64,000 bases of DNA from a virus, in the IMG/VR virus record IMGVR_UViG_3300027770_000029. One strand, 5' to 3'. Both the position numbers and the translations under genes were made by a program. The notes beneath the pieces are model-generated. The model was given only the letters and a program-made list of their open reading frames with translations. It was not told where the DNA came from and did no database searches. Positions 299 through 35,804 of this stretch are shown here, piece after piece (positions within the stretch are counted from its first letter, which is position 1; every line of letters begins with the position of its first letter).

Positions 299-577
299 AT
301 GGCGCCCGCGGACGGTCAAAAAACAAATCCTCCCGCATCGGGTGATCTCATAATAGCAAGCGATGGGACTCCCCTCATTGTCCTCGGTCTACCGGATACG
401 ACAGGGGAGGATGAGAGGTTCGGTAGGCTGCTCGATGGGGTGATAGTCGTCCTGACACCGGATGGGACACCCTCGCTCCACCTCGTAAGCATGCCTCCAG
501 GGAGGAAGCCGTTCCTATCACCATGGGACTCGGGCTGGATCCCACTCCCGTGCAACCCGGCTCCCCATATGGTATGA
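299..577 (+). CDS. Hypothetical protein, GDL/SH3-like family
   Basis: GGAGG SD; 'SGDLII' motif. Confidence 0.6.
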   Translation: MAPADGQKTNPPASGDLIIASDGTPLIVLGLPDTTGEDERFGRLLDGVIVVLTPDGTPSLHLVSMPPGRKPFLSPWDSGWIPLPCNPAPHMV

Positions 578-584
578 TCGGTCC

Positions 585-908
585 ATGGACAGCACCCAAC
601 CCAGCACCACACTCGGCTCCCCCATCCCGCTCCTCCCCGGCGACCTTGTCCTCCTCCAGCAGAGGGAGAGGTACATCCCGGGAGCCCTCCGCCAGAGTCC
701 CGCGACCCTTGCCTCCGCCCTTGCCCGGGTCCCGATCTGGCGCCGTCCGGGGGGAAGCTACGACCACCTGCCGAGCGGCACCCTCGCGATGCTCGTCCGA
801 CCCGGCGGCGGCGTGGACATGGCGGCACGCTGGGAGATCATGCTCGCAGGGGGTGAGATCGTCTTCTGCTACGCGATCCACATTGACCTCGTCCCGAATG
901 CCCCATAA
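585..908 (+). CDS. Hypothetical protein, probably leaderless, GDLV family
   Basis: ATG 7 nt after -10 TATGAT, no SD; 'PGDLVL'. Confidence 0.6.
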   Translation: MDSTQPSTTLGSPIPLLPGDLVLLQQRERYIPGALRQSPATLASALARVPIWRRPGGSYDHLPSGTLAMLVRPGGGVDMAARWEIMLAGGEIVFCYAIHIDLVPNAP

Positions 909-930
909 GTGTGTCATCGATGTCACACTT
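907..930. promoter_or_regulatory. Palindromic operator-like site AAGTGTG(A/T)CA-N4-TG(T/A)CAC
   Basis: AAGTGTGTCA TCGA TGTCACACTT; related copies at 14418, 17956, 25306, 27914. Confidence 0.55.
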
Positions 931-1937
931 GTGCCCCCACCCGCACAGGGGATGGGGACAAGCGGACCATCGCCGGCGCCCGTGGCAGGGGGCGGGCTCT
1001 GCCCGCCCCGCCACGCAGATTCACACCGCGCCCTGTTGCCCTGCCCACCGCTCGGGCTCCGCCAAACCCCCTGTGAGACACCGCCGCGCTCTCCGAGAAT
1101 CGTTGCCCACAGCGCGCCCCGGCAGCCCTTCGTGACAGTCGGTGTGTCACATATCTCCCCCTGTAACGTGACACTCGGAGCGCCCGCCTCTGTAACCCCA
1201 ACTCCCTGTCACACTGCTCCCTCTCTACTCCGGGATACCCCACCCTGAGCACGCCCAACCCTCCGTGCTGCGGCTCCCCTGGATGATTTTTCTTTCTCCC
1301 GGCGCTGCACATCGGCTCCGAGCGCCATATATTTCATTGTGGACCGCCGCGGCTCTCCGTCGCCCGGGCCCTCCGAGACCCTCACATCCCATTCCGAGCC
1401 CCGTCCCCCTTCACTGACAATGGGCCGAGTCTAAGGGAACAGGGGATCTCGGAGCGCCAGGGTGAACTCCGAGCACGGGCCAGGTCCACGAGGACCGGGA
1501 TTCCCTCCGAGACCGGCACCTCGTCCCTGGGAGGAACCCCGCACCACGAAGATCACCATCCCCGAGAAGAGGCACAGGGTCCCAGAGACCCCAGGACCGT
1601 GAGGGGGCCGGCGGCATCGAGGAGCAAGACATCGCTGATCCATGAACGCTGAGGACGGCTCCTGACATCCTGTCACGGGTCCGGCAACCCCGGCGTGTCA
1701 AGTTGTCCCGGGGGCCCGCCTCCTGCCAACCTGTCACGACCCTGGACGGCCGGCCTGACAAGTTGTCACGCCACCCCGGCGGCCTCGCTGCGCTCGCCTC
1801 CCGGATGGACGGTCCAGGGGTGGGACCTTGCCTTATATATAGCGCCTCCTGCAGGCCGGTCGGACCCCCCTCACCGGGCGGGCAGGCGTGCAACCCCGAG
1901 CGGGCCATGGTATAGTGAACACATGATGGAGGGCGAC

Positions 1938-2147
1938 ATGAAGGTAGGTGATCTCGTCAGGGTGGCCCAACGCTTCTCCGGAAACTGGGCCGAGCGGGTC
2001 CCGGTCTTCAACGATGGATCAGCCGCCCACGGCGTCGTGATGGAGTTCTCCTCATTTGGATGCGACACCCTCGTCCTCATCGACGGGCATCCCACCTGGG
2101 TAGTCCTCAGGAACCTGGAGGCCGTCAATGAATCCGAAGGTCGGTGA
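1938..2147 (+). CDS. SH3/KOW-like mini-protein (MKVGDLVRV)
   Basis: Promoter 1888, SD, GDLV motif. Confidence 0.75.
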   Translation: MKVGDLVRVAQRFSGNWAERVPVFNDGSAAHGVVMEFSSFGCDTLVLIDGHPTWVVLRNLEAVNESEGR

Positions 2148-2343
2148 GCTCTGGCGGTCACCCGGATGGATCATGGTCGGCGCCGGCATATGGATCCATC
2201 CGGGCACCCTCCTCCTCATCGTTGAGCGCGACATGGTCGACACCGACACCGGCGATGGTGAGAGCCGGGTGGTCTGGGAGGGCGGGTCCGGATGGATCTC
2301 CGACCTCTGCATTCGGTGGGAGCGCGTCGATGCAGCCGGGTGA
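2128..2343 (+). CDS. SH3-like mini-protein (MNPKVGELW)
   Basis: Overlapping chain of paralog-like ORFs. Confidence 0.7.
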   Translation: MNPKVGELWRSPGWIMVGAGIWIHPGTLLLIVERDMVDTDTGDGESRVVWEGGSGWISDLCIRWERVDAAG

Positions 2344-2566
2344 TCTCGTCCGGGTGATGGACCCATCGGGCCGTCCGGTCATCGGGGCCTGGTTCAACTC
2401 GGATAACCACTGGCGGTCGGTTGACATCGAGGGCGGCTCCCTGGCGATGGTCGTGGAGCATGATGTCGTCGGCGCGCAGATGAGGGTCCTTGTTCACAGC
2501 AGGTCGGTCTGGGTCCGGGCGGAGTTCGTGCAACCGGCGGGTGGGGATGGTATACTGGCATCATAA
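2330..2566 (+). CDS. SH3-like mini-protein (MQPGDLVRV)
   Basis: ATG 2330 in frame with track ORF 2144..2566. Confidence 0.75.
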   Translation: MQPGDLVRVMDPSGRPVIGAWFNSDNHWRSVDIEGGSLAMVVEHDVVGAQMRVLVHSRSVWVRAEFVQPAGGDGILAS

Positions 2567-2576
2567 GGAGGGCGAC

Positions 2577-2810
2577 ATGGCATACGGACGGCTTCCCTGG
2601 ATCGGGGACATCTGGAGTCCCACCCACCCCGGCGCGGTTCGGGGCAATGCCCGGTGCCCTGAGGGTACGCACGTCCTCGTCATCGGTCGCCACTTCGACC
2701 ACAAGGTGCTCGACTGGGTCTCGACCGTCACCTGGGCTGGCAACGTTGGGACGATCCCGGACCGGACCGGTTACTTCGTGCCCGTCAGCTTTGCGGAGCG
2801 TGGTCAATGA
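2577..2810 (+). CDS. Hypothetical protein (MAYGRLPWIGDIW)
   Basis: Promoter 2528 plus SD. Confidence 0.7.
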   Translation: MAYGRLPWIGDIWSPTHPGAVRGNARCPEGTHVLVIGRHFDHKVLDWVSTVTWAGNVGTIPDRTGYFVPVSFAERGQ

Positions 2811-2962
2811 GGCCGGGTGATCTCGCCAGACGGATCGTCAGGGAGGATGAGCCGCTCGCGGTCGTGCTCCGGATCTACGGCGACGAGGTTGAGATCCTCA
2901 CCGACACCGGGGAGACCAAGTGGGTGTACTACGATGCTCTGGAGCCCGTCGATGAACTTTGA
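2807..2962 (+). CDS. 51-aa SH3-like mini-protein (MRPGDLARRIV)
   Basis: ATGA overlap, manual translation, below track length cut-off. Confidence 0.7.
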   Translation: MRPGDLARRIVREDEPLAVVLRIYGDEVEILTDTGETKWVYYDALEPVDEL

Positions 2963-3212
2963 TCGTGGTGACCTTGTCAGGGTGATCCACCCATGGAGCG
3001 CCCACGTCACGCTGGAGACCCACGCGGCGCTCGCGGCCCCGGACGCGGACGGCGGATTCTGGGGCATGAAGGACGGTAAGGAGTTCTTCATCAAGTCCGG
3101 CTCCCTGGGCACCGTCCTCGAGGACGGGAGGTGGCGCGTCCTTGTCACCTTCGGGGATCGGACCTGCTGGCTCGATGATCTCTCGCTGGAGCGTATCAAT
3201 GAAGCCGGGTGA
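2952..3212 (+). CDS. SH3-like mini-protein (MNFDRGDLVRV)
   Basis: Overlap with previous stop, GDLV. Confidence 0.75.
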   Translation: MNFDRGDLVRVIHPWSAHVTLETHAALAAPDADGGFWGMKDGKEFFIKSGSLGTVLEDGRWRVLVTFGDRTCWLDDLSLERINEAG

Positions 3213-3486
3213 TCTCGTCACCGTCAGGAAACCCACCGTGCCTTGGATCGTCGACCAGCCCCTCCACGACATGCCCTATCAGGATGGGCGGAAATGGGCT
3301 CGGTGGCTGACGGAGAACTGGGAGAAGAAGCCCGTGGTCATCACCTCGACCACGGGACTGGAGGGGGTCCGTGAGGAGATGCTGGAGACCCTGCGGAAGG
3401 GAGGATTCAAGGCGATCATCAACCCGGCGGATCACGCCGGCTGCGAGATCGAGTGGCTCAGCTGGATGAAGGGTGCGCTGGCGTGA
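3199..3486 (+). CDS. Hypothetical protein (MKPGDLVTV)
   Basis: GDLV start, overlap. Confidence 0.75.
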   Translation: MKPGDLVTVRKPTVPWIVDQPLHDMPYQDGRKWARWLTENWEKKPVVITSTTGLEGVREEMLETLRKGGFKAIINPADHAGCEIEWLSWMKGALA

Positions 3487-3812
3487 CCTTCCTCGATAAT
3501 CTCCAGTCCCACAAGGGTGGCCTCATCAAGCTGAAGACCCAGCTCTACTGGAATGATGGTCGAGGTTGGGACAACAATCCCGGCCGGATCTGCCTCCTCC
3601 TGGATGCCGAAGCCGTCACGACCTTCACCGGCACCGCCGCCGCCGCCGGGATCACCGTCAGCACCGTGACCGCCAGCGCCGCGGTGCCCGACTACGCGCG
3701 CATCGCCGCTGCCCTCCTCCTCGTCGACGGGGCTCCTCACTGGATCTGGGTCGGCGCTGACGACCTGGAGCTCCTGCAGCCCGGGTGCAACCCCTCGGGT
3801 GGGGTGGTATAG
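3483..3812 (+). CDS. Hypothetical protein
   Basis: GTGA overlap, phage-like codon usage. Confidence 0.65.
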   Translation: MTFLDNLQSHKGGLIKLKTQLYWNDGRGWDNNPGRICLLLDAEAVTTFTGTAAAAGITVSTVTASAAVPDYARIAAALLLVDGAPHWIWVGADDLELLQPGCNPSGGVV

Positions 3813-3819
3813 TGGACAC

Positions 3820-4008
3820 ATGATGGAGAGTGGCGTGAAACCTGGTGATCTCATCCAACTCAACAAGAACGTCTTCGGCGGCGGCGACATCGGGATGGTG
3901 CTCGGTCCCCACCCACTCGGTGGTGGATGCCTTGAGGTACTGTTCAATGACAGGCGCCGCCAGGTCCACCCTTCGAACGTCCAGAAGCTCAACGGGAGGA
4001 AGCCATGA
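3820..4008 (+). CDS. SH3-like mini-protein (VKPGDLIQL)
   Basis: Promoter 3785; clear paralog of 4005..4202. Confidence 0.75.
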   Translation: MMESGVKPGDLIQLNKNVFGGGDIGMVLGPHPLGGGCLEVLFNDRRRQVHPSNVQKLNGRKP

Positions 4009-4202
4009 ATCCCGGTGATCTCGTCCAGATCAGGAAGGGTGTCGACGGGCAGGGAGAGGTCGGGATCGTGATCGGTCCTGCCACCGGCCCGTCGTGGCTC
4101 ATGCGCGCCGGATGCCTGGACGTCCTGTTCCATGAAGGCATCCGACACGTCCACCCCTCGAACATCCAGGCGCCCGACGGGCGGACCAAACCCCGACGGT
4201 AG
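4005..4202 (+). CDS. SH3-like mini-protein (MNPGDLVQI)
   Basis: Shares G.V+GP...GCL.VLF......VHPSN+Q with previous ORF. Confidence 0.8.
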   Translation: MNPGDLVQIRKGVDGQGEVGIVIGPATGPSWLMRAGCLDVLFHEGIRHVHPSNIQAPDGRTKPRR

Positions 4203-4273
4203 GAACCGCCTGCGGCAAGTGTGCAACCCCTGGCAGGCTATGGTATAGTGTATCCACAACGGAGGAATCAATC

Positions 4274-4744
4274 ATGAAGTTCAGCGTCGACCAGCACGTC
4301 ATCATGAAGGGCCAGGGCCCGCTTTCGGGTCGCCGGCGTGTGATCATCGGGATCCTCGACCCCGGATACTACACCGTCGCCCGTCCTGACAATGTGGCGG
4401 AGAGCTGTCACATTGCCCACGAGAGCAACCTCATCCCCGAGGAGCCCGTGCAACCGGCGGGGCAGCATGGTAAGATCGAAACACAACCGGAGCGGATCAT
4501 GAAGAACGAGACCACCCACGACCTGCTCGACCGCGCGATGTGCAACGAGGCCCTCGCCTTCCTGCGTCAGATCTCCGCGCTCGAGAACGACGACCTCTGG
4601 GCTTTCGCCCGCCTCATCGCGGAGACGAAGCTGCCCGCCTGGACCACCCGCACGACCCTCGGCGATGTCTTCCACACGGCGAAGAGCATGGTCGTCCTTG
4701 AGGACGCCCAGAGCATGATCTACAACTTCAACGAAGGGGAGTGA
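4274..4744 (+). CDS. Hypothetical protein with internal promoter and second start at 4499
   Basis: Promoters at 4221 and 4448, both with SD. Confidence 0.7.
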   Translation: MKFSVDQHVIMKGQGPLSGRRRVIIGILDPGYYTVARPDNVAESCHIAHESNLIPEEPVQPAGQHGKIETQPERIMKNETTHDLLDRAMCNEALAFLRQISALENDDLWAFARLIAETKLPAWTTRTTLGDVFHTAKSMVVLEDAQSMIYNFNEGE

Positions 4745-4747
4745 ACC

Positions 4748-5092
4748 ATGAGCACCCGCTCAACGATCGGATACGAGACCGCTGACGGCGGATATGTCGG
4801 GGTCTACTGCCACTTCGACGGCTACCCCAGCAACATCGGGCCGTCCCTCCATGAGATGCTCCACGCCGATGTGGTCATCATGGTGGAGAAGGCTCTCCGT
4901 CGGGGCGGCATGCGCTGCCTCAACGGTCCCGGTGAATTCGAGGTTTACAACGAGCGCTCGGAGCGTGAGCACTGGCTCCACGACGCCTGGCCCGAGCGCA
5001 ATGAGGACTACGCCTACCGGAAGTGCCTCGATGGGCGGGTCGAGTACATCGACAGCAGTGACACCGTCTGGGAGTGGAAGCCGAAGGGCTGA
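4748..5092 (+). CDS. Conserved phage protein (MSTRS...YCHxDGYP family)
   Basis: Recognisable YCHFDGYP motif. Confidence 0.75.
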   Translation: MSTRSTIGYETADGGYVGVYCHFDGYPSNIGPSLHEMLHADVVIMVEKALRRGGMRCLNGPGEFEVYNERSEREHWLHDAWPERNEDYAYRKCLDGRVEYIDSSDTVWEWKPKG

Positions 5093-5158
5093 GGCTCCGA
5101 CGGCAGGCATGCAAAGGCCGGCGGTCCATGGTATAGTGTATCCACAACGGAGGAAGGA

Positions 5159-5975: not shown

Positions 5976-7061
5976 ATGGCTGCCTCGAATCCCATCGACT
6001 TCGCGACCCTCAACATCGTGCTGCAGTTCGTCAAGGACGCGGTGCTCCTTCGCGGCCCTCACGGCATCGGCAAGAGCGCTGTCCCCGCCGCGGTCTCCAA
6101 GCGCACCGGCAAGCGCCTCCTCGACGTCCGCCTCTCCCTCTTCACGGAAGGCGACCTCGTCGGCGTCCCGAACCACGAGCTCATCAAGTCGACGGGGGTC
6201 ACCTCGTTCGCTCCCCCCGACTGGCTCCACGCGGCCTGCACTGAGCCCGTCATCCTCTTCCTGGACGAGATCAACCGTGCTACGCCGGGTGTCCAGAACT
6301 CCGCGTTCCAGCTCGTCCTCGACCGTGAGGTCAAGGGGTGGCGCCTCCACCCGGAGACCCTCGTCTTCGCGGCGATCAACGACAGCCCGGAGTACAACGT
6401 CAATGAGATGGATCCGGCTCTCCTGGACCGGTTCGTCACCTACGACCTCGTCCCCACCCACAAGGACTGGCTCACCTGGGCGGTCAGTGAGGGTCTCGAC
6501 GAGCTCATCGTGGACTTCATCCGCCAGCACCCCGAGCACCTTCGCCCGACGAAGGCGGTCGAGCCCGGATCGATCACGCCGACCCAGCGAAGCTGGGCCC
6601 GCCTGGCCCGGACGCTGATGGACAACGGCCTGGCTCCGAGCCAGCATGGTGGCTCCGACAAGGACTCGCTGCCCGCCGGCTTCTACGCGATCGCGATGGG
6701 CTACGTTGGTGCACCGACTGCGATCGCCTTCGTCAACTTCATCAAGGAGTACGACTCGGTGATCTCGGCCGAGGACATCGTGGACCGCTGGAAGAGCTTC
6801 GAGAAGAAGGTCGCCAAGCTGCCCGCCGAGAAGGTCCTGGCGATCATCGAGAAGGTTGGCAACCTCTGCAAGGAGAAGGAGCTCACCCTCACTCAGATCC
6901 AGAATCTCGGTGCCTTCGGCCAGGCCGTCAGCGGCGAGCAGGTCATGGCCCTCTGGTCCTCGGTGAGCTCCGGGAAGCAGGCCAACACCGTGAAGTTCCA
7001 CAAGTTCATCCAGCCCCGAATCCTCGAGGTCGCAACAAAGGCTAATGGCGTCAAGAAATGA
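5976..7061 (+). CDS. MoxR-like AAA+ ATPase
   Basis: Walker A GPHGIGKS, Walker B LFLDEINR, MDPALLDRF. Confidence 0.92.
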   Translation: MAASNPIDFATLNIVLQFVKDAVLLRGPHGIGKSAVPAAVSKRTGKRLLDVRLSLFTEGDLVGVPNHELIKSTGVTSFAPPDWLHAACTEPVILFLDEINRATPGVQNSAFQLVLDREVKGWRLHPETLVFAAINDSPEYNVNEMDPALLDRFVTYDLVPTHKDWLTWAVSEGLDELIVDFIRQHPEHLRPTKAVEPGSITPTQRSWARLARTLMDNGLAPSQHGGSDKDSLPAGFYAIAMGYVGAPTAIAFVNFIKEYDSVISAEDIVDRWKSFEKKVAKLPAEKVLAIIEKVGNLCKEKELTLTQIQNLGAFGQAVSGEQVMALWSSVSSGKQANTVKFHKFIQPRILEVATKANGVKK

Positions 7062-7398
7062 CATCTTCGGTGAGGGCACGCTCCTCCCTTCGGCGGGCCC
7101 AGTAAGCGCGGAGAGCCTTGGATCGCTTCTGATTGCTCTCCTCACTCTGGGCCCGCGTTCGTAGCTACTACTTTAGTCTCGGTCTGGGGGTGTTTGGAGG
7201 CAATCCCCGAGGGTTGGTGGGAGAAGGCCCACACCCCCAGACCCTTTCACTTTCGTGGACCGGCCCTTGAGCCCCGAGTCTTCCGTTCCGTTCCTCCGTT
7301 CCCTCGAGGCTCGGGCCGGTCCACCTTCTCCCCGACGCGTCCTGTGCAACCCCGCCGGCGCTATGGTATAGTCTACTTGAATGGAGGCAAGGAAACAA

Positions 7399-8784
7399 AT
7401 GGCAAAGGCAACCAAGACTCAGGGCACCGCGGGTACGACCCCCAACGTGGCAGCAACGAAGAAGGTCGTGGACCCCGTCCGTCTGCGCGACTTCGACATG
7501 GACAGCCACCTGGTGGCCCTCGCCTGGAACGAGTCGTTCTACGCGGACATCATCCGCTCGCTGACGAAGATCGAAACCGACGAGATCCCCACGGCGGGCG
7601 TCGTCCAGAAGGGCTCCGAGATCACCATGTGGTGGAACCGTGAGTTCTGCGCCGGCCTCTCCGACCGCCAGGTCCGAGGGCTCCTGAAGCATGAGAGCCT
7701 TCACCTCATCCTGCTTCACACGACGACCCGTCGATACGATCCTCACTGGGTCCACAACTGGGCCGCCGATCTCGCAATCAACTCGATGATCCCCGAGGAC
7801 GAGCTCCCTGAGGGTGGCCTCATCCCCGGACGCCCCTTCCCGAAGCTCACGGCAGAGCAGGCCGCCGAGCGCACCGAAGAGGAGATCGCCCGCCACGAGG
7901 CGCTCTCGAAGCTCATCGCCTCCTTCCCGAAGGGCGAGTCCACCGAGTGGTACTTCGGGAAGCTCATGGAGAACGAGACGGTCAAGGAGATGGAGGCCGA
8001 GCGTAAGAAGAGCGAGGAGGCCTTCAAGGAGATGATGGAGAAGCTCGCCGAAGCCATGGGTGGGGGTGACAGCCACGAGGGCTGGGGTGACTCCGAGAAT
8101 GTCAGCGAGGAGGACCGGCAGCTCGCCGAGGGCAAGGTCCGGCAGGTCCTCAAGGAGGCTTCCCAGAAGGCCGACCGTACGAACTCCTGGGGTACGGTGC
8201 CCTCCGAGATGCAGGCTGCCATCCGAAAGCTCGTGAGCGGTGAGATCCCCTGGCAAAGCGTTCTCCGACAGTTCGTCGGGTTCACCCACCGCCAGGATCG
8301 CCAGGAGACTTGGACCCGCTCCTCCAAGAAGGACCCGATGGGCCAGCCCGGAACTACGTACAACTACCTTCCGAGTATTGCGATCTTTGTCGATCAGTCC
8401 GGTTCGGTGCCGGACTCCTCACTTGAGCTCTTCTTCGGTGAGCTGGCATCGCTCTCCCGGAAGGCCACCTTCAAGGTCTACTACTTCGACACCGAGGTCG
8501 ACGTAAAGAACGGTTTCGTCTGGCGTCGGGGCTCGGCAGTCACCCCGAAGCGGACCCGGTGCGGTGGTACGGACTTCGAGGCACCGACCAAGTTTGCTGA
8601 TTCCCAGAAAGACATCGACGCTTTCATCATCCTCACTGACGGCGGTGCTCCGAAGCCGAGCTCTTCTCGGAAGCGGCGAGCTTGGATTCTCGATCCTGGA
8701 AACGAGCTCTACTTCAAGGATGTCGACAGCAAGGACGTCGTCATCAAGATGAAGCACCCTGAGAAGAAGTCCCAGGCCGCCTGA
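7399..8784 (+). CDS. Putative metallopeptidase plus VWA-like domain protein (DUF2201-type MoxR partner)
   Basis: HESLH (HExxH), NWAADLAIN, MIDAS-like DQSGS, GGTDF, ILTDG. Confidence 0.88.
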   Translation: MAKATKTQGTAGTTPNVAATKKVVDPVRLRDFDMDSHLVALAWNESFYADIIRSLTKIETDEIPTAGVVQKGSEITMWWNREFCAGLSDRQVRGLLKHESLHLILLHTTTRRYDPHWVHNWAADLAINSMIPEDELPEGGLIPGRPFPKLTAEQAAERTEEEIARHEALSKLIASFPKGESTEWYFGKLMENETVKEMEAERKKSEEAFKEMMEKLAEAMGGGDSHEGWGDSENVSEEDRQLAEGKVRQVLKEASQKADRTNSWGTVPSEMQAAIRKLVSGEIPWQSVLRQFVGFTHRQDRQETWTRSSKKDPMGQPGTTYNYLPSIAIFVDQSGSVPDSSLELFFGELASLSRKATFKVYYFDTEVDVKNGFVWRRGSAVTPKRTRCGGTDFEAPTKFADSQKDIDAFIILTDGGAPKPSSSRKRRAWILDPGNELYFKDVDSKDVVIKMKHPEKKSQAA

Positions 8785-11836: not shown

Positions 11837-12592
11837 ATGCGTCTCAAGGTCGCCACTGATTCCGTCGAGTTCGGCAGCAACATCAACGATGTCGTCGTCC
11901 CCGAGGCGATGCGGCACAAGTTCCTCTCCGGCCTCGACTTCTTCGATGCCGCGATCGGCGGTGTGGGGTTCACGCCCTCCGCCTCGATGATCTTCACCGG
12001 CGAGGCCGGTGCCGGCAAGACGACGATGATGCTCACCCTCGCCGACCACCTCACCCGCTCCGGTGCGGTCGCGGTCTTCAACACCGCCGAGGAGTCGCTC
12101 TTCCAGGTGAAGGCCGCCTGTGAGCGTCTCGGACTCCGCAAGGGGTTCGCGGTCGGCAGCGAGAACGAGGTCGGTGAGCTCCTGAAGAAGGCGGACAAGT
12201 TCCGCAACCTCGAGAAGAACAAGGGCAAGCCCTTCATGCTCATCGTGGACTCCCTCCAGTGCATGGATGACGGCCACTTCTCCACGGGCCGCATCACCAC
12301 TGCGACGGCCGAGCGAAGCTTGGAGCAGATCACCAACTGGTGCAAGGAGAACTACACCAACGCGATCGTCATCGGGCAGGTGACCAAGGGTGGAGTTTTC
12401 GCTGGGAGTAACAAGCTCAAGCATTGCGTCGACGCGATGGTGCAGCTCACCATCGAGAAGAAGGACAAGGATCTGCTCGGTTGCCGTCGCCTCGAGACCA
12501 CGAAGAACAGGTTCGGGGGATCGGGCGCTACCACCTGGCTCTCCCTGAACGCAAGCGGCTTCCAGGTAGTTGCGGTCGCTGAGGAGGAGTGA
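11837..12592 (+). CDS. RadA/Sms-like ATPase (ATPase core only)
   Basis: GEAGAGKTT, AEES, IVDSLQ, GQVTKGG.FAG...LKH.VDA, KNRFG signature; no Zn finger or Lon domain. Confidence 0.88.
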   Translation: MRLKVATDSVEFGSNINDVVVPEAMRHKFLSGLDFFDAAIGGVGFTPSASMIFTGEAGAGKTTMMLTLADHLTRSGAVAVFNTAEESLFQVKAACERLGLRKGFAVGSENEVGELLKKADKFRNLEKNKGKPFMLIVDSLQCMDDGHFSTGRITTATAERSLEQITNWCKENYTNAIVIGQVTKGGVFAGSNKLKHCVDAMVQLTIEKKDKDLLGCRRLETTKNRFGGSGATTWLSLNASGFQVVAVAEEE

Positions 12593-15544: not shown

Positions 15545-15740
15545 GATCCTTCGAAGGTGGGTGACCATGGGTGTCGACGGGACACCCCTGGAGGAGATCA
15601 AGGCCTTCCACAGGGAGCATCATCGATCTATCGTCGATGAGGTCATCCGTTTCGAGTCAACTCTCGAAGGACACAAAGAGCTCAGGGCTCTGGTCGAGCA
15701 GATTCGGGATTCGTGCAACGGCCGGCCCACCATGGTATAA
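15537..15740 (+). CDS. Hypothetical protein (MSEILRRW)
   Basis: GTG overlapping previous stop. Confidence 0.55.
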   Translation: MSEILRRWVTMGVDGTPLEEIKAFHREHHRSIVDEVIRFESTLEGHKELRALVEQIRDSCNGRPTMV

Positions 15741-15816
15741 CTGAATAGTCAAGCGGGAAACGGTGCATTCCCGCCGCCCCTGTGGTATTGTAACCACACC
15801 AACCAAGGACGAGCCA

Positions 15817-19493: not shown

Positions 19494-19994
19494 ATGAGCA
19501 ACGAAACCATCAACACCCCGACCGACAGCATCTTCAACGACCTGGAGACCATCATGGACACCGAAATCCCCGCCACCCTCATCGACCACCTCAACTACGA
19601 GACCCCCATCACGGTCAACGCCCTGGCCAAGCTCGCCGGGCTCTCCCAGACCGCCCTCACCCTCCAGCTCGTCGAGCTCGGTGGGCGGGTCGGTGTCAAG
19701 GACGGTGGCCTGGTCCGCCTCCCCGAGCCCGAGCCGGTCACCGAGAAGGCCAAGGCGGTCGGTCCTCGTGGACCCACGGCCAAGGTGGCTCCGCGACTGG
19801 AGGCCTGCCGTGAGACCCTCCTGGCCCTCATCGAGGCCGGCCCGGTCACCGCGATCGACCTCCTGAAGGTCGCCGAGGACCGGTTCATCTACACCGACAT
19901 CCTCCTCGTGGCCCGTACCCTCCTCGCGGATGGGGCCATCGTGGAAACCCGGAAGGGTCGCAAGGCCTCGTGGGCCAAGCCCTCGGAGGAGTGA
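19494..19994 (+). CDS. Winged-helix family paralog 1 (PRGPTAKV...YTDILLVA...RKGRKA)
   Basis: Shared motif with four other copies. Confidence 0.8.
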   Translation: MSNETINTPTDSIFNDLETIMDTEIPATLIDHLNYETPITVNALAKLAGLSQTALTLQLVELGGRVGVKDGGLVRLPEPEPVTEKAKAVGPRGPTAKVAPRLEACRETLLALIEAGPVTAIDLLKVAEDRFIYTDILLVARTLLADGAIVETRKGRKASWAKPSEE

Positions 19995-24200: not shown

Positions 24201-24416
24201 ATGGCAAGCGACCCACGGTTCGAGATCCCACCGGCCCTCCGGAGCATGGGCATCTTCGGCGGGCTCATCATGATCGCGCTCGGTCTCATCATCGGCTGGC
24301 AGAAGAGCGGATCCCAGACGGAGCTTCCCCAGACGGGCTTCAAGGTTCCCCCCAAGGAACCCGGGCTCCTCGAGCGGCTCGCCCAAGCGGTCCTCGACGG
24401 AGGGAAGAAGACCTGA
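24201..24416 (+). CDS. Small membrane protein
   Basis: Promoter 24149, one TM segment. Confidence 0.65.
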   Translation: MASDPRFEIPPALRSMGIFGGLIMIALGLIIGWQKSGSQTELPQTGFKVPPKEPGLLERLAQAVLDGGKKT

Positions 24417-24991
24417 TGAAGTGGGCAACGTCCGACCATCACTGGGGTCACTGGCGCCTCAACACGACCTACTGCCGTGACTCCAGGGGCTTCCCCTCCG
24501 TCGAGGAGATGAACGCCCAGCTCATCGCCCGCTGGAACGAGTCGATCGCACCCGACGACGAGGTCTTCCTGGTGGGCGATGTGTTCGTCAGCCGTCGGAT
24601 GACCCTCGATGAGAAGGTCGGGATCCTCAGGATGCTCAACGGGAAGAAGACACTCATCCGTGGCAACCACGATGATGATCTCACGCCTTTCGAGCTCGCA
24701 GGATTCGAGTCAATCGTCGACCACATCTGGATGCCGGAGGAGCGGATCCTCATCATCCACAAGGGACCGGATCCCCGATACGCACCCGAGGAGCTCGCCC
24801 TTCAGAAGGAGCTCGGTGCCCTCCTGACGGTGCACGGGCATGATCACCGTCACGACACCCCGGACAACCCTGGCTGCCTCAACGTCTGCGTTGATCGCTG
24901 GGACCTCCGTCCTGTGCCCTGGGCAAGGGTCGAAGAGAGGCTCACCAGCATGCACGGGATCACTCCAGATTCACTCCACAGGATGGAATAG
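24416..24991 (+). CDS. Calcineurin-like metallophosphoesterase
   Basis: SDHHWGH, VGD, GNHD, HGHDH; NVCVDRW phage-type C-terminus. Confidence 0.9.
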   Translation: MKWATSDHHWGHWRLNTTYCRDSRGFPSVEEMNAQLIARWNESIAPDDEVFLVGDVFVSRRMTLDEKVGILRMLNGKKTLIRGNHDDDLTPFELAGFESIVDHIWMPEERILIIHKGPDPRYAPEELALQKELGALLTVHGHDHRHDTPDNPGCLNVCVDRWDLRPVPWARVEERLTSMHGITPDSLHRME

Positions 24992-25924: not shown

Positions 25925-26272
25925 AATCATGCAACCCCCTCGGTGTTGTGGTATAGTGTATTCACAACGGAGGACGGAATGAGCACAGCAGCAGGCCTCA
26001 TCGCAGTGGCCCTCATCGCAGTCATCGGCTTCATCATCTCGGCCGAGATCGCCGAGCTCTGGGACGAGTGGGTGATCTCCAGGACCCGGGTCCTCACGGA
26101 AGAGGACGAGGACTGAGACGAAACCTGTGCAAGCCAGTTCAAACCATGGTATGATGTATTCATGGTGAGGGAAGGAAACATCGCGGCAAACCCAGGCCGG
26201 CCGGCAAAGGCGGTTTGGGAAAGCGTGCAAGGCCACCCAAACCATGGTATAACTAATCATCAAGGAGGCAGC

Positions 26273-30014: not shown

Positions 30015-30088
30015 TGGTGGCAGGGGGTCGGCGGGTTCCATGCAATCCGTCGGCCCGCCTGGTATAACTGAACCATCAAGGAGGCAAC

Positions 30089-30343: not shown

Positions 30344-30884
30344 CGGCCCCGCCGGCATGGTATACTGATCTCACCAACCAACCAAGGAGTTCAAATGCTC
30401 GCTCTCTTCTTCGCCCTCTTCACCGGTCACAACACCGAGCCGGTCGTCACCCCCGAGGCCCTCATCATCACCCCCGACTTCGATGCGATCTGGGTGCCCG
30501 AGGGGGTCACCGGTCCCATCGTGGCCGCCCCCCTCGATGAGCGGGCCTTCGAGGCCTCGGGTGAGTGAGCCCACGAGCCCGGCCGGGTGGGTCGCCATCG
30601 TGGTGGCCCTCCTGCTCCCGGTGGTCACCACCTGGGCGGTGATCACGAACACCGGGGAGCGACGGAGCGAGGCCGAGGTCCGCTTCCACATCGACCTCCA
30701 GCGGCAGCTCGATCGCCAGGCCAGGGAGCTCCAGGAGCTTCGGGCGACGGTCGAGGAGCAGGCCCAGGAGATCAGGTCCTACGATCGCGAGCTCGACCAG
30801 ATCGTGGAGGCCGTCGACGATCCCTCGTGAAACCGTGCAATTCCCTGGCCGCCGTGGTATATTGATCTCACAACGGAGGAAGGA

Positions 30885-31070
30885 ATGAAGAGCAAGTACG
30901 TCATCACCGCCGACCACGGTCACGGCCTCGTCTACCTGGTTCACGGGGGCGGAGCGTTCGCCTGGTGGACCCCCCACAAGTCGATGGCCTCCCACTTCAG
31001 GGGCCTCGAGCTCGCCAACAGCCTGGTGAAGGCCAGGGGTGGGAGGGTTCACCGGGTGGTGGTCCCGTGA
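30885..31070 (+). CDS. Hypothetical protein
   Basis: Promoter 30835 plus SD. Confidence 0.7.
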   Translation: MKSKYVITADHGHGLVYLVHGGGAFAWWTPHKSMASHFRGLELANSLVKARGGRVHRVVVP

Positions 31071-31315
31071 CCTGGCCGCCTGGTCCAGGTGAGCTCTGGT
31101 TGGCCACCGACCGATGGCCACCGACGGAATTGGAGCCGGGGATCGAGGGAGGTGACCTGGTGATGGTCATCCGGAGTGAGGTGATGGAGTCCTGGGCGGG
31201 GCCGAACTGGTGGCGCGGGGAGGTCCTGGCACCCGGCGGTCGGCGGTTCATACGGGCGGTCGAGGGTGACCTCATCCCGGGTGACGACCCCCGCATCTGT
31301 GCACCGGCTGCCTGA
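31067..31315 (+). CDS. SH3-like protein (PGELW...GGDLVMV)
   Basis: GTGA overlap. Confidence 0.55.
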   Translation: MTWPPGPGELWLATDRWPPTELEPGIEGGDLVMVIRSEVMESWAGPNWWRGEVLAPGGRRFIRAVEGDLIPGDDPRICAPAA

Positions 31316-31348
31316 CCGTGGTATAGTTAGATCATCAAGGAGGGACGG

Positions 31349-31516
31349 ATGAACGAGTTCAAGTCCCACATCGAAGGCTGGTGGAAGGGTGGCAAGACCT
31401 GCCCATGCTGCGTTGAGGTCAAGGACAAGCAGCGCACCCGACGGGCGGCGCGGCGTCGCCTGAAACAGGCGGACCGAGTGCGCGACGCTCGCGCGGAATC
31501 CCAGGAAGCTGAATAG
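31349..31516 (+). CDS. 55-aa basic protein with CPCC
   Basis: Promoter 31299 plus SD, manual translation. Confidence 0.6.
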   Translation: MNEFKSHIEGWWKGGKTCPCCVEVKDKQRTRRAARRRLKQADRVRDARAESQEAE

Positions 31517-31553
31517 TTAGAGGAGCGCCGGCGGACCCGGCAGAGGAGACAGA

Positions 31554-31796
31554 ATGGCATTGACAGAGAGCAAGCTCCGTCGGATCATCCGCGAGGAGGC
31601 TGGCAAGATGATGAGAGAGGGACACTGGGATGATGATGACGGTGGCGACGAGGACGACGACTACTGGGATCGCGAGTTCGATGACGACTCCGATGACGAG
31701 TACGATGCAATCAAGGACTACGCCGCGATGACCGGCCAGGACAAGGACACGGTCTTCCGTGACCGGATGGCGGGACGTTACGGTCGCAGACGCTGA
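31554..31796 (+). CDS. Acidic protein with N-terminal LTESKLRRIIREE tag
   Basis: Late motif ATAGTTA at 31513. Confidence 0.75.
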   Translation: MALTESKLRRIIREEAGKMMREGHWDDDDGGDEDDDYWDREFDDDSDDEYDAIKDYAAMTGQDKDTVFRDRMAGRYGRRR

Positions 31797-31929
31797 GGCG
31801 GGAGCTGACATCGGTCTGATGTCAAGGGACCCTCCGGGGTCCCTTCGTCGTTTCATGCATCGGCCCTGCACCTGTGGTATTGTATTCTTGTTGGTGGGGA
31901 TGGACCCCACCGGAAACGAGGAGGACAAG

Positions 31930-32229
31930 ATGCCGAACAAGACCTGGACCCGCGGTGAGATCGAGGAGATGCTCCGGACGAACGATCGCGCCGTGGAGCG
32001 CGCGATGGTGGCGATCTGGGAGCGCCAGACCCAGGACGAGCAGGTGACCCAGACGGTCCGCCACCACAACAACAAGGGGTTCACCGGCTGGTCGGCCAAG
32101 TCGGGAACCTACTTCGCTGAGTGGGTCCAGTCCGGGCGCCGGCTCACCGGGAAGCACCTCGACAAGGCCCGCCGGATCGCCCTCCACCATGCCGGCCAGC
32201 TCACGGACTTCGCCAACGGGGTCCGGTGA
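31930..32229 (+). CDS. Conserved phage protein (AVERAMVAIWERQT...NNKGF)
   Basis: Promoter 31855 plus SD. Confidence 0.75.
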   Translation: MPNKTWTRGEIEEMLRTNDRAVERAMVAIWERQTQDEQVTQTVRHHNNKGFTGWSAKSGTYFAEWVQSGRRLTGKHLDKARRIALHHAGQLTDFANGVR

Positions 32230-32281
32230 ACGGTGCAAAGGTGACCGGACCGTGGTATAACTGAATCATCAAGGAGGCCAA

Positions 32282-32500
32282 ATGAGCAATCTCGAGTTCA
32301 CCGCCCGCGCCAACACCACCTGCGACTCCTGCGGTCGGCACACCAAGGTGGGGTTCTACCACCTCCACAACGGGACCCCGGTCCTGTTCGACTGCCCGCC
32401 CTGCGCGGAGCGGATCGTCGGCACCAAGGCCGTCGCGGAGGCGGTGGAGGAGCACAGGGGTCACGCCTTCCGGTGGATGGAGGCCCAGCCGGCGGGCTGA
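32282..32500 (+). CDS. Zn-ribbon protein (CDSC...CPPC)
   Basis: Promoter 32233. Confidence 0.7.
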   Translation: MSNLEFTARANTTCDSCGRHTKVGFYHLHNGTPVLFDCPPCAERIVGTKAVAEAVEEHRGHAFRWMEAQPAG

Positions 32501-32555
32501 GCTCCGTGCAAGGTGACGGCAGCCATGGTATATTCTAATCACAACGGAGGCAATC

Positions 32556-32816
32556 ATGGACTTCTTCAAGCTGCTCGTCACCCTGCCCGACCACTCCGAG
32601 ATGGGGATGGGGGGCCTCATCACCTCGGTCCCGACCTGGGAGGCGAAGTACGGTCCGGACTGGTCCACGGTCGAGCTCCTGTCCTGCGCCGATGGCCTCG
32701 AGGCCCGGGCCGAGGCGAACACCGGTGTGGAGTGGGGTGACATCCGGTCCCGTCACCAGAACTTCGAGAAGGCCCACTTCCTCCGGCGGGTGGCGTCGGA
32801 ACGGTTCGGTGGGTAG
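32556..32816 (+). CDS. Hypothetical protein
   Basis: Promoter 32506. Confidence 0.7.
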   Translation: MDFFKLLVTLPDHSEMGMGGLITSVPTWEAKYGPDWSTVELLSCADGLEARAEANTGVEWGDIRSRHQNFEKAHFLRRVASERFGG

Positions 32817-32881
32817 AGGACCCAGGGGTCCGTGCAACGGTCGGTCGGCCATGGTATAGTTCTTTCATCAAGGAGGCAATC

Positions 32882-33169
32882 ATGAACGGTTTCATCATCA
32901 CGCTCCCTTCCTCCCGCGGCGAGTCCATCTACCTGGTGGATCCGGCCCGGGTCGGTCACCCGGTCACCACCCACTACCCCTGGGCCCGGGCCGACTTCGT
33001 GGCCACCGTCTTCCCCACCCAGGAGTCTGCGCAGGCTGCCCTGGACAAGATGAAGGGGATCCACCACTACATCGCCCCCGAGGTCAACGGTGGTCTCACC
33101 AAGCGGCTCGATCAGGCCCGGGTGGTATCCACTGCTCAGGTTCGAGGGGTCATGCTCGAGGCCCTCTGA
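32882..33169 (+). CDS. Hypothetical protein
   Basis: Promoter 32832. Confidence 0.7.
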   Translation: MNGFIITLPSSRGESIYLVDPARVGHPVTTHYPWARADFVATVFPTQESAQAALDKMKGIHHYIAPEVNGGLTKRLDQARVVSTAQVRGVMLEAL

Positions 33170-33222
33170 GGCCCGTGCAAACCTGGTGGCGGTGGGGTAT
33201 ACTGATCTAGCAAGGAGCAAAC

Positions 33223-33456
33223 ATGGACCTCTTCATCAACGCCTTCTCGTTCACCTTCGGCATCCTGGCGGCCCTCGCCTGCGTCCCGGTCCTCTTCATC
33301 TTCGTGATGGTCCTCCTCCCCAACCTGCTCGGGGCCGCCGTCACCCTGCACTCCTCGAAGGAGCACAAGGCCAAGAAGTGGAACCGGGCGGTCGAGCTCG
33401 GGGACGAGAGCCAGATGAAGTTCATGCGCAAGTGGGGTTGGGACAAGGCCGCCTGA
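33223..33456 (+). CDS. Small membrane protein
   Basis: Promoter 33175, hydrophobic N-terminal half. Confidence 0.65.
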   Translation: MDLFINAFSFTFGILAALACVPVLFIFVMVLLPNLLGAAVTLHSSKEHKAKKWNRAVELGDESQMKFMRKWGWDKAA

Positions 33457-33543
33457 TTCCGTGCAACCCTCCTCCCACCGTGGTATATTCTTCTTGTTGG
33501 TGGGGAACACCAACGGCAACAACAAACGGCCAAGGAGCCAATC

Positions 33544-33966
33544 ATGAGCACCGACCTCCTCTCCCTCCTCTCCACCACCCCGGTCACCTTCAACGCCCTC
33601 CAGAAGGCCTCCGGCCTCTCGGCCACCAACCTGGCCCTCGGCCTGGTCGGCCTGGGTGGCAAGGTGACGGTCCAGGACGGTGGTCTGGTCCTCGCCCCGG
33701 AACCCCAGGTCCAGGCCAAGGAGAAGGCCCCCACCGGCCCCCGTGGACCCACGGCCAAGGTCCAGCCCCGTCTGGATGCCTGCCGGTCCCTCCTCCTGAC
33801 CATGGTCGGTGGGGCGGAGGGGGTCACGGCGAAGGCCCTCCTGGAGGCCGGTGGTGGGGCCTTCGTCTACACGGACATCCTCCTGGTGGCCCGTGAGGAG
33901 CTGGCCAAGGGGACCATCCAGGAGAGCCGGAAGGGCCGGAAGGCCACCTGGGTGGCCGGTTCCTAA
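33544..33966 (+). CDS. Winged-helix family paralog 5
   Basis: Same motif. Confidence 0.8.
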   Translation: MSTDLLSLLSTTPVTFNALQKASGLSATNLALGLVGLGGKVTVQDGGLVLAPEPQVQAKEKAPTGPRGPTAKVQPRLDACRSLLLTMVGGAEGVTAKALLEAGGGAFVYTDILLVAREELAKGTIQESRKGRKATWVAGS

Positions 33967-34076
33967 CCCGGTCGGACCGGTGGGACCTGGGGGTGCTGGT
34001 GGCCCTCCGGACCCTTCGCCGTTTCGGTGCAACCCCGCCGGCGGCATGGTATAGTTCTTTCATCAAGGAGGAAGGA

Positions 34077-34241
34077 ATGAGTCTCAAGCAATGGTACAAG
34101 CGGCGCGCGGATCGTGACTCGGGTGCCGAGGATCTGGCCCCTCCCCGTGAGCAGGTGTGTTACACCGCGGCCGCGCCCCGCCACCCGGTCCCCCTGACCG
34201 TGACGCCTCCGCCCCCGAGGAAGCTCACCGCCCCGGACTGA
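34077..34241 (+). CDS. Small hypothetical protein
   Basis: Promoter 34027 plus SD. Confidence 0.55.
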   Translation: MSLKQWYKRRADRDSGAEDLAPPREQVCYTAAAPRHPVPLTVTPPPPRKLTAPD

Positions 34242-34294
34242 TCCTGTGCAAGCCCGATGACGGCATGGTATATTGTTCTTACAAGGAGGCAATC

Positions 34295-34549
34295 ATGACG
34301 CACTTCATCACCGACGAGCACGGCAACCGGACCTTCGAGCACGCCGGATGGCGGGTCAGGATCTGGAGTGGACGGGGTGATGTCCCGACCGTGACCGCCC
34401 CGGGGAGCAGCGAGGACGTGGAGATCTGGCCCGAGGGCATCCGCGTGTACGGGGAGTCCCATGTGGGGCGGGAGACCAGCCCCCGCGCCGTCATCCTCCC
34501 CTGGCCCGTGGTCGAGGCGATTGTTGCCGCCCGTGCAATCGTCGGCTGA
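34295..34549 (+). CDS. Hypothetical protein
   Basis: Promoter 34246 plus SD. Confidence 0.65.
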   Translation: MTHFITDEHGNRTFEHAGWRVRIWSGRGDVPTVTAPGSSEDVEIWPEGIRVYGESHVGRETSPRAVILPWPVVEAIVAARAIVG

Positions 34550-34584
34550 ACCTGGTATAACCTTCTTACCAAGGAGAGAGCAAC

Positions 34585-34782
34585 ATGAACAAGCCCGAAA
34601 CCAACGGTTACCTCGCCGCCGTCACGGCCCAGCTTCGCGCGGTGGAGGCCGCGCTCAACGAGATCAACAGGACCGGTGACCTCACCGGCGTCGCGTTCGA
34701 CGTCTTCCGGGAGGTCCGGATGGATGTCATCAACGCCGGGGCGAAGCTCGACACCGTCCGCAGCTGGAACCTCCGCGACTGA
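34585..34782 (+). CDS. Small helical protein
   Basis: Promoter 34533 plus SD. Confidence 0.7.
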   Translation: MNKPETNGYLAAVTAQLRAVEAALNEINRTGDLTGVAFDVFREVRMDVINAGAKLDTVRSWNLRD

Positions 34783-35052
34783 TCCTGTGCAACCCGGGCG
34801 GCGGCGTGGTATAACCTTCTTACAAGGAGCCAATCATGAACGCCAACATCACCAACAACGACCTCGAGATCATCGCCCTGGGCCTGGACGGGAGCCTCCG
34901 GCGCGCGAAGGACCAGTTGATCCACGGTGTCCAGACCCTCCTGGTCGGACGGTCGAGCACACCCACCACACGACGACCCGGTACCTGATGACGTGAGGGA
35001 TCCGTGCAAGGCGGTCGGCTCCATGGTATAACTGTATCATCAAGGAGGCAAG

Positions 35053-35247
35053 ATGCAGAAGGAAGGAACCACGACCTACGGCTCGAACGGCGCTCACACC
35101 TGGACGGTCTGGGTCGCCCGGTACGGTGGGTGGCGCTGGGAGGTCTCGGGTCCCCTCGGCTGGATGGAGAGTGGCGGGGCAGCGAGCAAGGGGGATGCCT
35201 TCATCGCCCTCCGGCAGGTCCTCCTCCGGCGGGGGGAAACGGTGTAA
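35053..35247 (+). CDS. Hypothetical protein
   Basis: Promoter 35004 plus SD. Confidence 0.65.
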   Translation: MQKEGTTTYGSNGAHTWTVWVARYGGWRWEVSGPLGWMESGGAASKGDAFIALRQVLLRRGETV

Positions 35248-35296
35248 CGGTCCTGACCCCGTGGTATAACTGAATCATCAAGGAGGAAGGAACAAC

Positions 35297-35560
35297 ATGA
35301 ACGCCACCGACATCCAGATCGAGCTCCACGGTTTCCACTCGGACGTCTACAAGGAGGTCCACAACATCCGCCCCCGTTGGCTCCGCCCGGAGGACCGGAC
35401 GGCCGAGGAGTGGCAGGCGATGATCTCCCGCCTGATCGAGGAGGGTCAGGAGCTCGCCCGCAGGGAGCAGGAGGAGGCCGAGGCCCACGCGCGGTGGCAG
35501 GCCGAGGTGACGGCGTGCAAGCCCCTTCGGGTGCCCCTGGCGGCCTTCCTCCGGCTCTAG
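35297..35560 (+). CDS. Conserved phage protein (HSDVYKEVHNIRPRW)
   Basis: Promoter 35242; SDxYKxxxGxRPR-like motif. Confidence 0.75.
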   Translation: MNATDIQIELHGFHSDVYKEVHNIRPRWLRPEDRTAEEWQAMISRLIEEGQELARREQEEAEAHARWQAEVTACKPLRVPLAAFLRL

Positions 35561-35615
35561 GAGCCCGTGCAACGCCGGCGACAGCCTGGTATAACTGAAT
35601 CATCAAGGAGGCAGC

Positions 35616-35804
35616 ATGCAGACGGAACGCATCGGCATCACCGAGCTCTTCGAGCGGGTCGAGGCCTTCAAGGCGGCGGACCCCCGCAACGGTGGAAGCA
35701 CCGACGAGATGGTCTCCCTCTACGTCGACGTCAGTGCAATCATCCGCGCGGCTGGCTGGGGGATCTGGGAGTACGAGGCTGCCCTCAGCTACGTGCCCGC
35801 GTAA
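35616..35804 (+). CDS. Hypothetical protein, last gene of the early array
   Basis: Promoter 35567. Confidence 0.7.
   Translation: MQTERIGITELFERVEAFKAADPRNGGSTDEMVSLYVDVSAIIRAAGWGIWEYEAALSYVPA

Follow-up and report, generated by a model that had tools for sequence, protein, structure and literature searches.

The 64,000-nucleotide (nt) stretch of virus DNA in IMG/VR record IMGVR_UViG_3300027770_000029 (hereafter the window) contains a block of about 35 kb in which the same promoter-like sequence recurs ahead of one small gene after another. The array raises the question of whether this repeated module serves only to express the genes behind it or also to exchange them. An earlier note, made from the letters alone, had proposed that each promoter-gene unit is an exchangeable cassette. 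We characterized the module, the genes and the corresponding arrays of related phages. The results suggest that early-promoter modules double as stretches of homology through which promoter-gene cassettes are shuffled, a reading that we consider probable. Positions are those of the window, and a promoter position is that of the T of its TGCAA core.

551..35804, + strand: array of 74 promoter-leader modules and ~92 small genes, 63% GC

A promoter-like module repeated on one strand

In the window, the literal pattern RTGCAA-N17-TATRRY is matched exactly at 52 places, every one on the + strand and 50 of them within 550-35804, whereas shuffled sequence yields 0.03 matches. The looser pattern TGCAA-N17-TAT gives 71 matches versus 0.6 expected. 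A position weight matrix (PWM) built from the pattern-matched sites returned 74 sites on the + strand, the first at 551 and the last at 35568; they score ~15-39, whereas shuffled sequence does not exceed 12. On the minus strand of the window only three matches, all weak, were found. The mean spacing in the array is ~480 nt, in agreement with the ~75 one-strand copies at ~470-nt intervals that had been noted by eye. Four further sites lie downstream, in the lower-GC part of the window, so the array and the rest of the window appear to share one transcription signal.

551, 1889, 2529, 3786, 4222, 4449, 5110, 5797, 5892, 7345, 8971, 9662, 10295, 10787, 11449, + strand: PWM sites, part 1
11750, 12880, 13478, 13989, 14896, 15199, 15714, 15764, 16408, 16975, 17405, 18318, 18585, 18848, 19068, + strand: PWM sites, part 2
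19351, 19443, 20046, 20535, 21042, 21444, 21816, 22175, 22457, 22974, 23380, 24150, 25361, 25930, 26128, + strand: PWM sites, part 3
26226, 26528, 26620, 27118, 27415, 27595, 27965, 28302, 28571, 28660, 29126, 29717, 30041, 30339, 30836, + strand: PWM sites, part 4
31300, 31856, 32234, 32507, 32833, 33176, 33462, 34028, 34247, 34534, 34788, 35005, 35243, 35568, + strand: PWM sites, part 5
40100, 40880, 43935, 46164 (40100..46192), + strand: further predicted promoters of the same type in the lower-GC region (PWM)
15712..15762, + strand: best-scoring promoter-leader module, as an example (PWM score 39.1)

The module consists of CCGTGCAA, 13 variable GC-rich bases, TGGTATAAY, a leader near TCATCAAGGAGG, 5-6 nt and ATG, and 393 distinct copies, taken from the window and from relatives, give the same consensus. 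The conserved block runs for ~55 nt, from ~3 nt 5' of the -35 hexamer through the start codon, rather than for the 30 nt first described. The -35 and -10 hexamers are separated by 17 nt and the -10 is TG-extended, a two-block geometry of the sigma-70 type; we therefore refer to the modules, for brevity, as promoters, the term denoting a prediction throughout. The -35 hexamer GTGCAA matches TTGACA at three of six positions, and a generic TTGACA/TATAAT sigma-70 scan detects none of the array sites because their -35 box differs. In the standard module, a predicted promoter leader of ~12 nt precedes a consensus Shine-Dalgarno (SD) sequence and the ATG. The distance from -10 to start codon is 19-23 nt at 43 of the 74 sites, with a consensus SD, which bears out the description of the motif as followed by an SD and a short open reading frame (ORF).

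The modules are packed tightly against the preceding genes. The median distance from the previous stop codon to the -35 box is 9 nt, and 55% of the 74 distances fall within -30..+10, as expected from the earlier observation that the motif starts near, or overlaps, the previous stop. One peak lies at +4..+6 (21 cases), where the stop ends 4-6 nt 5' of the TGCAA core, and another at -27 (5 cases), where the TAA/TAG within the -10 hexamer is itself the stop of the upstream gene. At two promoters, a stop TAA converts the -35 box to GTGTAA. The gap exceeds 100 nt in ~20% of cases, in part through genes missed by the simple gene caller that was used; some of the long 'gaps' are probably overlooked genes. 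A few promoters lie inside ORFs (for example, 4449 and 22457).

3786, 11449, 13989, 16975, 18585, + strand: promoters whose -10 TAA/TAG ends the upstream gene
30339, 35243, + strand: promoters with a stop TAA that converts the -35 box to GTGTAA

Terminator-like sites were not above chance in either half (8 versus 9.2 expected; 6 versus 10.2 expected), and the reported near-absence of terminators is thus upheld. A strong fold upstream of the promoter (34 nt, below the 5th percentile of the coding background) occurs at 11 of the 74 sites versus 3.7 expected. Most units have no stem-loop terminator directly upstream of the promoter, and there is no room for one because the upstream gene ends right at, or within, the -35 box. 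A hairpin in the -35/-10 spacer was considered and rejected: no pair of columns is complementary above expectation among 393 distinct promoters, and the folding energy of the spacer equals background.

Genes and units of the array

All convincing coding frames in the array lie on the + strand, with GC contents of 0.63, 0.45 and 0.84 at the first, second and third codon positions. Comparison with homologues in related contigs gave a median ratio of nonsynonymous to synonymous substitution rates (dN/dS) of 0.37, with values <0.5 in 82%. On the basis of this codon-position signature and dN/dS, the array genes are real and under moderately relaxed constraint. The units are not uniformly the single-gene cassettes of the earlier description: 49 contain one gene, which fits it, whereas 18 contain more (13 with two genes, 4 with three and 1 with five), and the other 7 consist of tandem promoters or lack a called gene.

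1889..3812, + strand: multi-gene units, eight small genes that overlap by 4-20 nt, behind two promoters (1889, 2529), with none between the overlapping genes
5976-7058, + strand: predicted MoxR-type AAA ATPase (Pfam AAA_5, 6.8e-13; PHROG match)
7399-8781, + strand: predicted VWA/DUF2201 metallopeptidase-like protein (Pfam DUF2201_N, 3.6e-18; PHROG match)
11837..12589, + strand: predicted KaiC/RecA-fold ATPase (Pfam KaiC ATPase, 2.2e-09), behind promoter 11750 with a 5' stem-loop leader
24416..24988, + strand: predicted calcineurin-like phosphoesterase (Pfam Metallophos, 5.8e-07; PHROG 547, 8e-32)
19494 (19494..19994), 26676, 28716, 29265, 33544, + strand: paralog family of five copies (all-against-all BLASTP)

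Pfam and PHROG searches gave no match for ~85% of the 90 array proteins of at least 40 amino acids, and the anti-host effectors of the earlier note are therefore candidates at most. The MoxR-type ATPase and VWA/DUF2201 genes (5976..8781), whose PHROG matches are 1297 and 1314, are the largest in the array, and each has its own promoter. The five-copy paralog family yields weak winged-helix hints (DprA_WH, 9e-4; DUF3489, 4e-3), both below curated cut-offs. The possibility that the array is one expanded protein family was rejected, as it holds just three small paralog groups, the largest with five members. Since the array proteins are mutually unrelated, the repeated unit is the putative regulatory module and not the gene. 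An Rfam search of the array found nothing, the only matches being the transfer RNAs (tRNAs) and one group I intron downstream.

Related arrays are mosaic, with breakpoints at the module

Metagenome contigs were scanned with a 17-base version of the motif, which matched at least 118 stretches, nearly all of them on short freshwater contigs. Eighty of these were analysed as loci, 64 of which are GC-rich array fragments. Among the matches listed, these fragments comprise 202 kb, 349 promoters and 478 genes; clustering with the window genes gave at least 214 families, at least 128 of which are not in the window, and at least 69 of the 86 window families also occur in relatives. The related arrays share a loose common order in which single cassettes are inserted, replaced, lost and occasionally reordered, and the promoter-gene units thus behave, on an evolutionary time scale, as exchangeable cassettes, as had been proposed. 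Written as strings of family numbers, for example, the window reads 8 > 33 >> 0 > 0 > 52 > 9 ... 32 > 3 > 1, whereas contig L073 reads 8 > 33 > 1 > 32 > 3 > 9 > 0.

The prediction that gene order would break at promoters was borne out. BLAST homology ends within the promoter-leader in 41-46% of cases, versus 13.6% for random positions. With multi-copy families excluded, the downstream neighbour is kept across promoter junctions in 35% of observations (0.39 per junction) and across promoter-less junctions in 64% (0.63 per junction; Mann-Whitney p = 0.03). At junctions that share the upstream or the downstream gene only, identity profiles switch at ~-10 to +50 relative to the -35 box.

32170..32900, + strand: variable junction region between families 3 and 4, with 0, 1 or 2 cassettes in relatives

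The interval between families 3 and 4 is empty in L084; it holds cassette 83 in L064 and L128, cassette 1 in L072, L082 and L098, and cassettes 1 and 72 in the window. The single promoter between genes 3 and 4 of L084 has the -35 box and spacer that are found after gene 3 elsewhere, and its 31 nt from TGGTATAAC on are identical to the leader that precedes gene 4 in other contigs. There are at least 12 distinct cases in which an upstream gene, together with its spacer barcode (match threshold, at least 11/14; background, 1%), recurs in front of different downstream genes. In these 12 chimeric cases, the -10, the leader or the start codon is where the sequences begin to diverge. These chimeric junctions match the products expected from homologous exchange between modules.

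A more distant contig of 104 kb, G004, carries an array of its own. This array (L060; G004:C1:84213-104212, reverse strand) has 63% GC, at least 21 modules and homologous genes; its consensus differs and reads CCGTGCGgg ... TGGTAGAATAAC. The box GTGCGG and the -10 flavour TAGAAT are uniform in ~20 of 21 sites, a pattern suggestive of concerted evolution, or of a box that co-evolves with its reader. One G004 module retains the window-type consensus and might reflect a recent transfer; the gene behind it does not resemble window-type homologues more closely than the neighbouring genes do. In another relative, an array-type promoter stands 36 nt upstream of a tRNA-Lys(TTT) gene (L127:870-981), and the module appears placed to drive an RNA gene as well.

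Genomic setting and borders

A megablast search with the first 20 kb of the window against 50,697 phage records found no match. Further downstream, a helicase gene (58051-59679) is 95-96% identical to the helicases of the IMG/VR contigs G001 and G002, which measure 152 and 172 kb. CheckV rates these two contigs as 45-51% complete, from which a genome of ~330 kb is estimated. A T4 gp23-type capsid gene is present in G001, G002 and G004 (E 1e-63 to 1e-66), and its nearest cultured relatives, all distant, are found in Flavobacterium, Microcystis, Rhodothermus and Xanthomonas phages. The predicted source of the window is an uncultured freshwater giant (jumbo) phage of the wider T4 superfamily, and the array is likely to be its early-gene (hyperplastic, ORFan-rich) region, early timing being assigned by analogy.

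35805..36215 (410 nt), no strand assigned: non-coding right border with GC-box repeats and hairpins

The GC content is 63% in the array and drops from 59% to 42% over the remainder of the window. The right border holds repeated GGGGCCCC boxes, GTTACAG repeats and a strong hairpin (35914-35936), and the first terminator-like hairpin on the + strand lies just beyond the array, at 36099-36115. This region may act as a boundary, as an origin or in regulation. The G001 and G002 contigs stop at the array border. The array fragments of relatives (L062-L141) are mostly contigs of 1-9 kb, which suggests that repeats or microdiversity break assemblies at such arrays. As a result of this fragmentation, arrays of this type are probably under-represented in metagenomic phage genomes.

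Comparison with known systems

Promoter early stem-loop elements (PeSLs) are ~100-bp early promoter/stem-loop modules that adjoin ORFans in the hyperplastic regions of T4-like phages (PMC2839356; PMC4122927). They have been described in RB49/phi1, T4/PST and KVP40/nt-1 (Arbiol et al. 2010, PMC2839356; Comeau et al. 2014, PMC4122927), with 52 copies in phi1, 51 in RB49 and up to 8 per 5 kb (PMC2839356; PMC4122927). Inverse PCR on RB49/phi1 yielded PeSL mini-circles whose crossovers lay between the -10 and the ATG (PMC2839356). The earlier note had placed known systems at a much lower copy number, which these figures show to be overstated. The principle that it advanced is also not new: Arbiol et al. 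2010 and Comeau et al. 2014 (PMC2839356, PMC4122927) had already put it forward as the PeSL model, which has been demonstrated in part.

Like the PeSLs, the array has a repeated module with the form of a sigma-70-type early promoter and an SD directly 5' of ORFans, in an ORFan-rich, variable region of what is predicted to be a T4-type phage. Insertions and deletions, replacements and displacements among relatives break in the module, with crossover between -10 and ATG, and the peak local density is about equal (8 per 5 kb). The array differs in that it sustains this density over 35 kb in one block of 74 sites, whereas the 51-52 PeSLs are scattered over a 164-kb genome. In the array, most units have no stem-loop terminator upstream, GTGCAA stands in place of TTGACA or GTTTAC as the -35 box, there is no AT-rich upstream region, and the block as a whole forms a GC-rich island whose codon usage is distinct. 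Moreover, mini-circles have been demonstrated for PeSLs, whereas for the array both mini-circles and promoter activity are predictions. The array is PeSL-type modular shuffling in a larger, mostly stem-loop-less, GC-rich form.

In the T4-like cyanophage S-PM2, the ORFanage is an uninterrupted run of ORFans that can disappear in its entirety (Puxty et al. 2015, PMC4503421). Its ORFs occur in freshwater metagenomes with poorly conserved synteny, it has few early promoters or stem-loops, and its authors argued against PeSL-type exchange (PMC4503421). The array is likewise a contiguous ORFan block in a T4-like phage, but it has promoters at nearly every junction.

The array also resembles an integron, in that it is a one-directional series of small, mostly unassigned, exchangeable single-gene cassettes drawn from a large population pool. 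However, each array cassette has its own promoter, which is itself the repeat, whereas integron cassettes are promoterless and depend on a single Pc promoter. Among the array proteins, Pfam and PHROG revealed no integrase family, and no attC-type folded site was detected in the repeat, which shows no conserved pairing among 393 modules. The notion of a recombinase-free library is supported by this lack of an integrase-type gene among the array proteins.

The terminal redundancy of SPO1 and the pre-early region of T5 are modules of clustered small early genes with several strong host-type promoters. The array shares with them small early genes, mostly of unassigned function, behind several host-type promoters (predicted here). 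It differs from them in that they have far fewer promoters and are defined by terminal-repeat location or first-step transfer. The stop of the relatives' contigs at the array border would be compatible with a terminal position of the array but carries no information on it. To our knowledge, promoter-mediated shuffling has not been described for these modules.

Proposed mechanism and alternative explanations

By analogy with T4 biology, the host sigma-70-type RNA polymerase would fire from all promoters straight after DNA entry. Because terminators are lacking, the transcripts would be nested and would read through to ~36.1 kb. The repeated module would also serve as a stretch of homology: recombination of one module with another, at any point from the -10 block through the start codon, would delete, insert, replace or move whole promoter-gene cassettes and leave one intact chimeric promoter. 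We infer homologous recombination between modules from the chimeric junctions and the PeSL precedent. Through such recombination, the phage population would share a large pool of early genes.

Several points weigh against this proposal. Promoter activity and early timing are read from sequence form and from the analogy with T4. With GTGCAA matching TTGACA at only 3/6 positions and GTGCGG in the sister lineage, a factor other than sigma-70 could read the box. The intergenic space is the promoter, and any turnover combined with selection for intact genes would put breakpoints there. The adjacency test is just modestly significant, and the contigs are non-independent samples. Finally, a strong upstream stem-loop is found at only 11/74 sites, the terminator half of the PeSL being mostly missing.

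The breakpoints would map to promoters in any event if the promoters were alike solely through selection for strong early promoters in a compact genome, and if genes turned over by illegitimate recombination or other routes in which promoters have no causal part. The stops squeezed into or against promoters indicate strong compaction, and the variable positions of paired promoters are only ~41% identical, both of which favour this explanation. However, it does not account readily for junctions that are seamless, with one intact chimeric promoter and an identity switch within the invariant -10/leader block, or for adjacency that is lost more at promoter junctions than at equally tight promoter-less ones. 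Neighbouring promoters are slightly more similar than distant ones (permutation p < 0.001), and PeSLs provide an experimental precedent (PMC2839356). We therefore consider selection without promoter-mediated exchange to be quite unlikely.

A different possibility, compatible with shuffling, is that the CCGTGCAA box is recognized by a transcription factor that the phage encodes or injects, or by a sigma-like protein of the phage, in which case the array would be a phage-controlled regulon. The poor match to TTGACA and the failure of a generic sigma-70 scan at all sites agree with this idea, as do the homologous G004 cassettes, whose uniform GTGCGG/TAGAAT (~20/21) looks as if the box co-evolves with a lineage-specific reader. 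This lineage difference is explained equally well by different hosts or by concerted evolution, though, and the canonical 17-nt spacing with a TG-extended -10 suffices for host RNA polymerase. T4-type phages transcribe their early genes with the host polymerase, and no candidate factor was identified. Control by a phage factor thus seems unlikely. It is highly improbable that the GC-rich block is foreign, either a mis-assembly of two genomes or an inserted mobile element. The composition step is sharp (63% GC versus 42-55%) and contigs from close relatives end at the edge of the array, but the same promoter type occurs at four sites in the lower-GC part, the right border is crossed by the independent contigs L138 and G001 and the left border by L111, and the second lineage, G004, is arranged alike on a contig with a gp23-type capsid gene. 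Shuffling of cassettes through early-promoter modules remains the reading that we prefer.

Variant leaders, tandem promoters and backward sites

About 19% of modules (77/413) lack the short SD leader. Most SD-less leaders open with a stem-loop ~6-8 nt after the -10, that is, at the predicted 5' end of the transcript. One class of stem-loop leader reads GTTGGTG-GGGAA-CACCAAC, and in another class a tRNA T-arm-like GGGGTTCGAATCCCC then follows. Stem-loop and T-arm leaders may be RNA stability or processing signals.

After promoters 5797, 5892, 11750, 29717, 31856, 33462: stem-loop-type leaders, with many more in relatives
After promoters 19351, 29126: T-arm-type leaders, with many more in relatives

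Tandem promoters, 50-100 nt apart, are found at 26128/26226, 26528/26620, 28571/28660, 19351/19443, 5797/5892 and 15714/15764. In three tandem pairs that precede members of the paralog family, the ATG of the first promoter lies 6 nt past the -10, a leaderless-type layout, and is in frame with the gene behind the second promoter; these pairs would, as predicted from this layout, yield long and short isoforms. The weak promoter-like sites on the minus strand (26491, 27082 and 29092) each lie just beyond the 3' end of a + strand gene, and two of these genes are paralogs. The three backward sites could be antisense promoters or a by-product of shared C-terminal coding sequence.

Codon usage and tRNA genes

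45248..56363, + strand: 14 tRNA genes, 11 with U at the first anticodon position, pairing with A-ending codons

The other three tRNAs are Tyr-GTA, Ser-GCT and Met-CAT. A group I intron match (55913-56109; Rfam RF00028, 56.6 bits) adjoins the tRNA cluster, and a gene for a di-haem cytochrome c peroxidase (49311-50456; Pfam CCP_MauG, 9.5e-50) lies amid the tRNA genes. The GC content at third codon positions is 0.84 in array genes versus 0.53 in the remainder of the window (36000-64000). The array nearly avoids the A-ending codons cognate to the phage tRNAs, whereas the remainder uses them, as shown below by the share of each codon among the codons of its amino acid.

AGA: array 1.3%, remainder 24%
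ATA: array 1.9%, remainder 12.6%
CTA: array 0%, remainder 8.8%
ACA: array 4%, remainder 22%
CCA: array 6%, remainder 21%

The likeliest reading of this split is that early genes are adapted to the tRNA pool of the host, and later genes to the tRNAs of the phage; the alternatives are a foreign origin or GC-biased conversion in a recombination-prone block. The high GC content of the array might be maintained in part by frequent promoter-mediated recombination, through GC-biased conversion. The idea that phage tRNAs favour later genes is long-standing; what is unusual here is the sharpness of the split between array and remainder. We tentatively suggest, as a possibility with less than even chances, that the array is a separate compartment, a terminator-less, recombination-driven pool of >200 early families with a host-like, GC3-rich codon dialect that shuns all A-ending codons read by the phage tRNAs, in a genome split in time by codon usage. 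Early genes would then be translated with host tRNAs, and later genes, in the remainder that depends on the phage tRNAs, with the phage's own pool.

Implications

The codon split offers a clean test case for phage tRNAs that serve later genes. The early-gene pool is common to lake populations, with at least 214 families in only ~240 kb sampled, and promoter arrays are probably under-reported in metagenomic phage genomes on account of short-read fragmentation. If module-mediated shuffling holds, this clade would represent PeSL-type exchange at its extreme, in which the promoter is both expression signal and recombination site, and the stem-loop half of the PeSL would be dispensable. The array would then be a natural system for the gain and loss of host-takeover and counter-defence genes without a dedicated recombinase.

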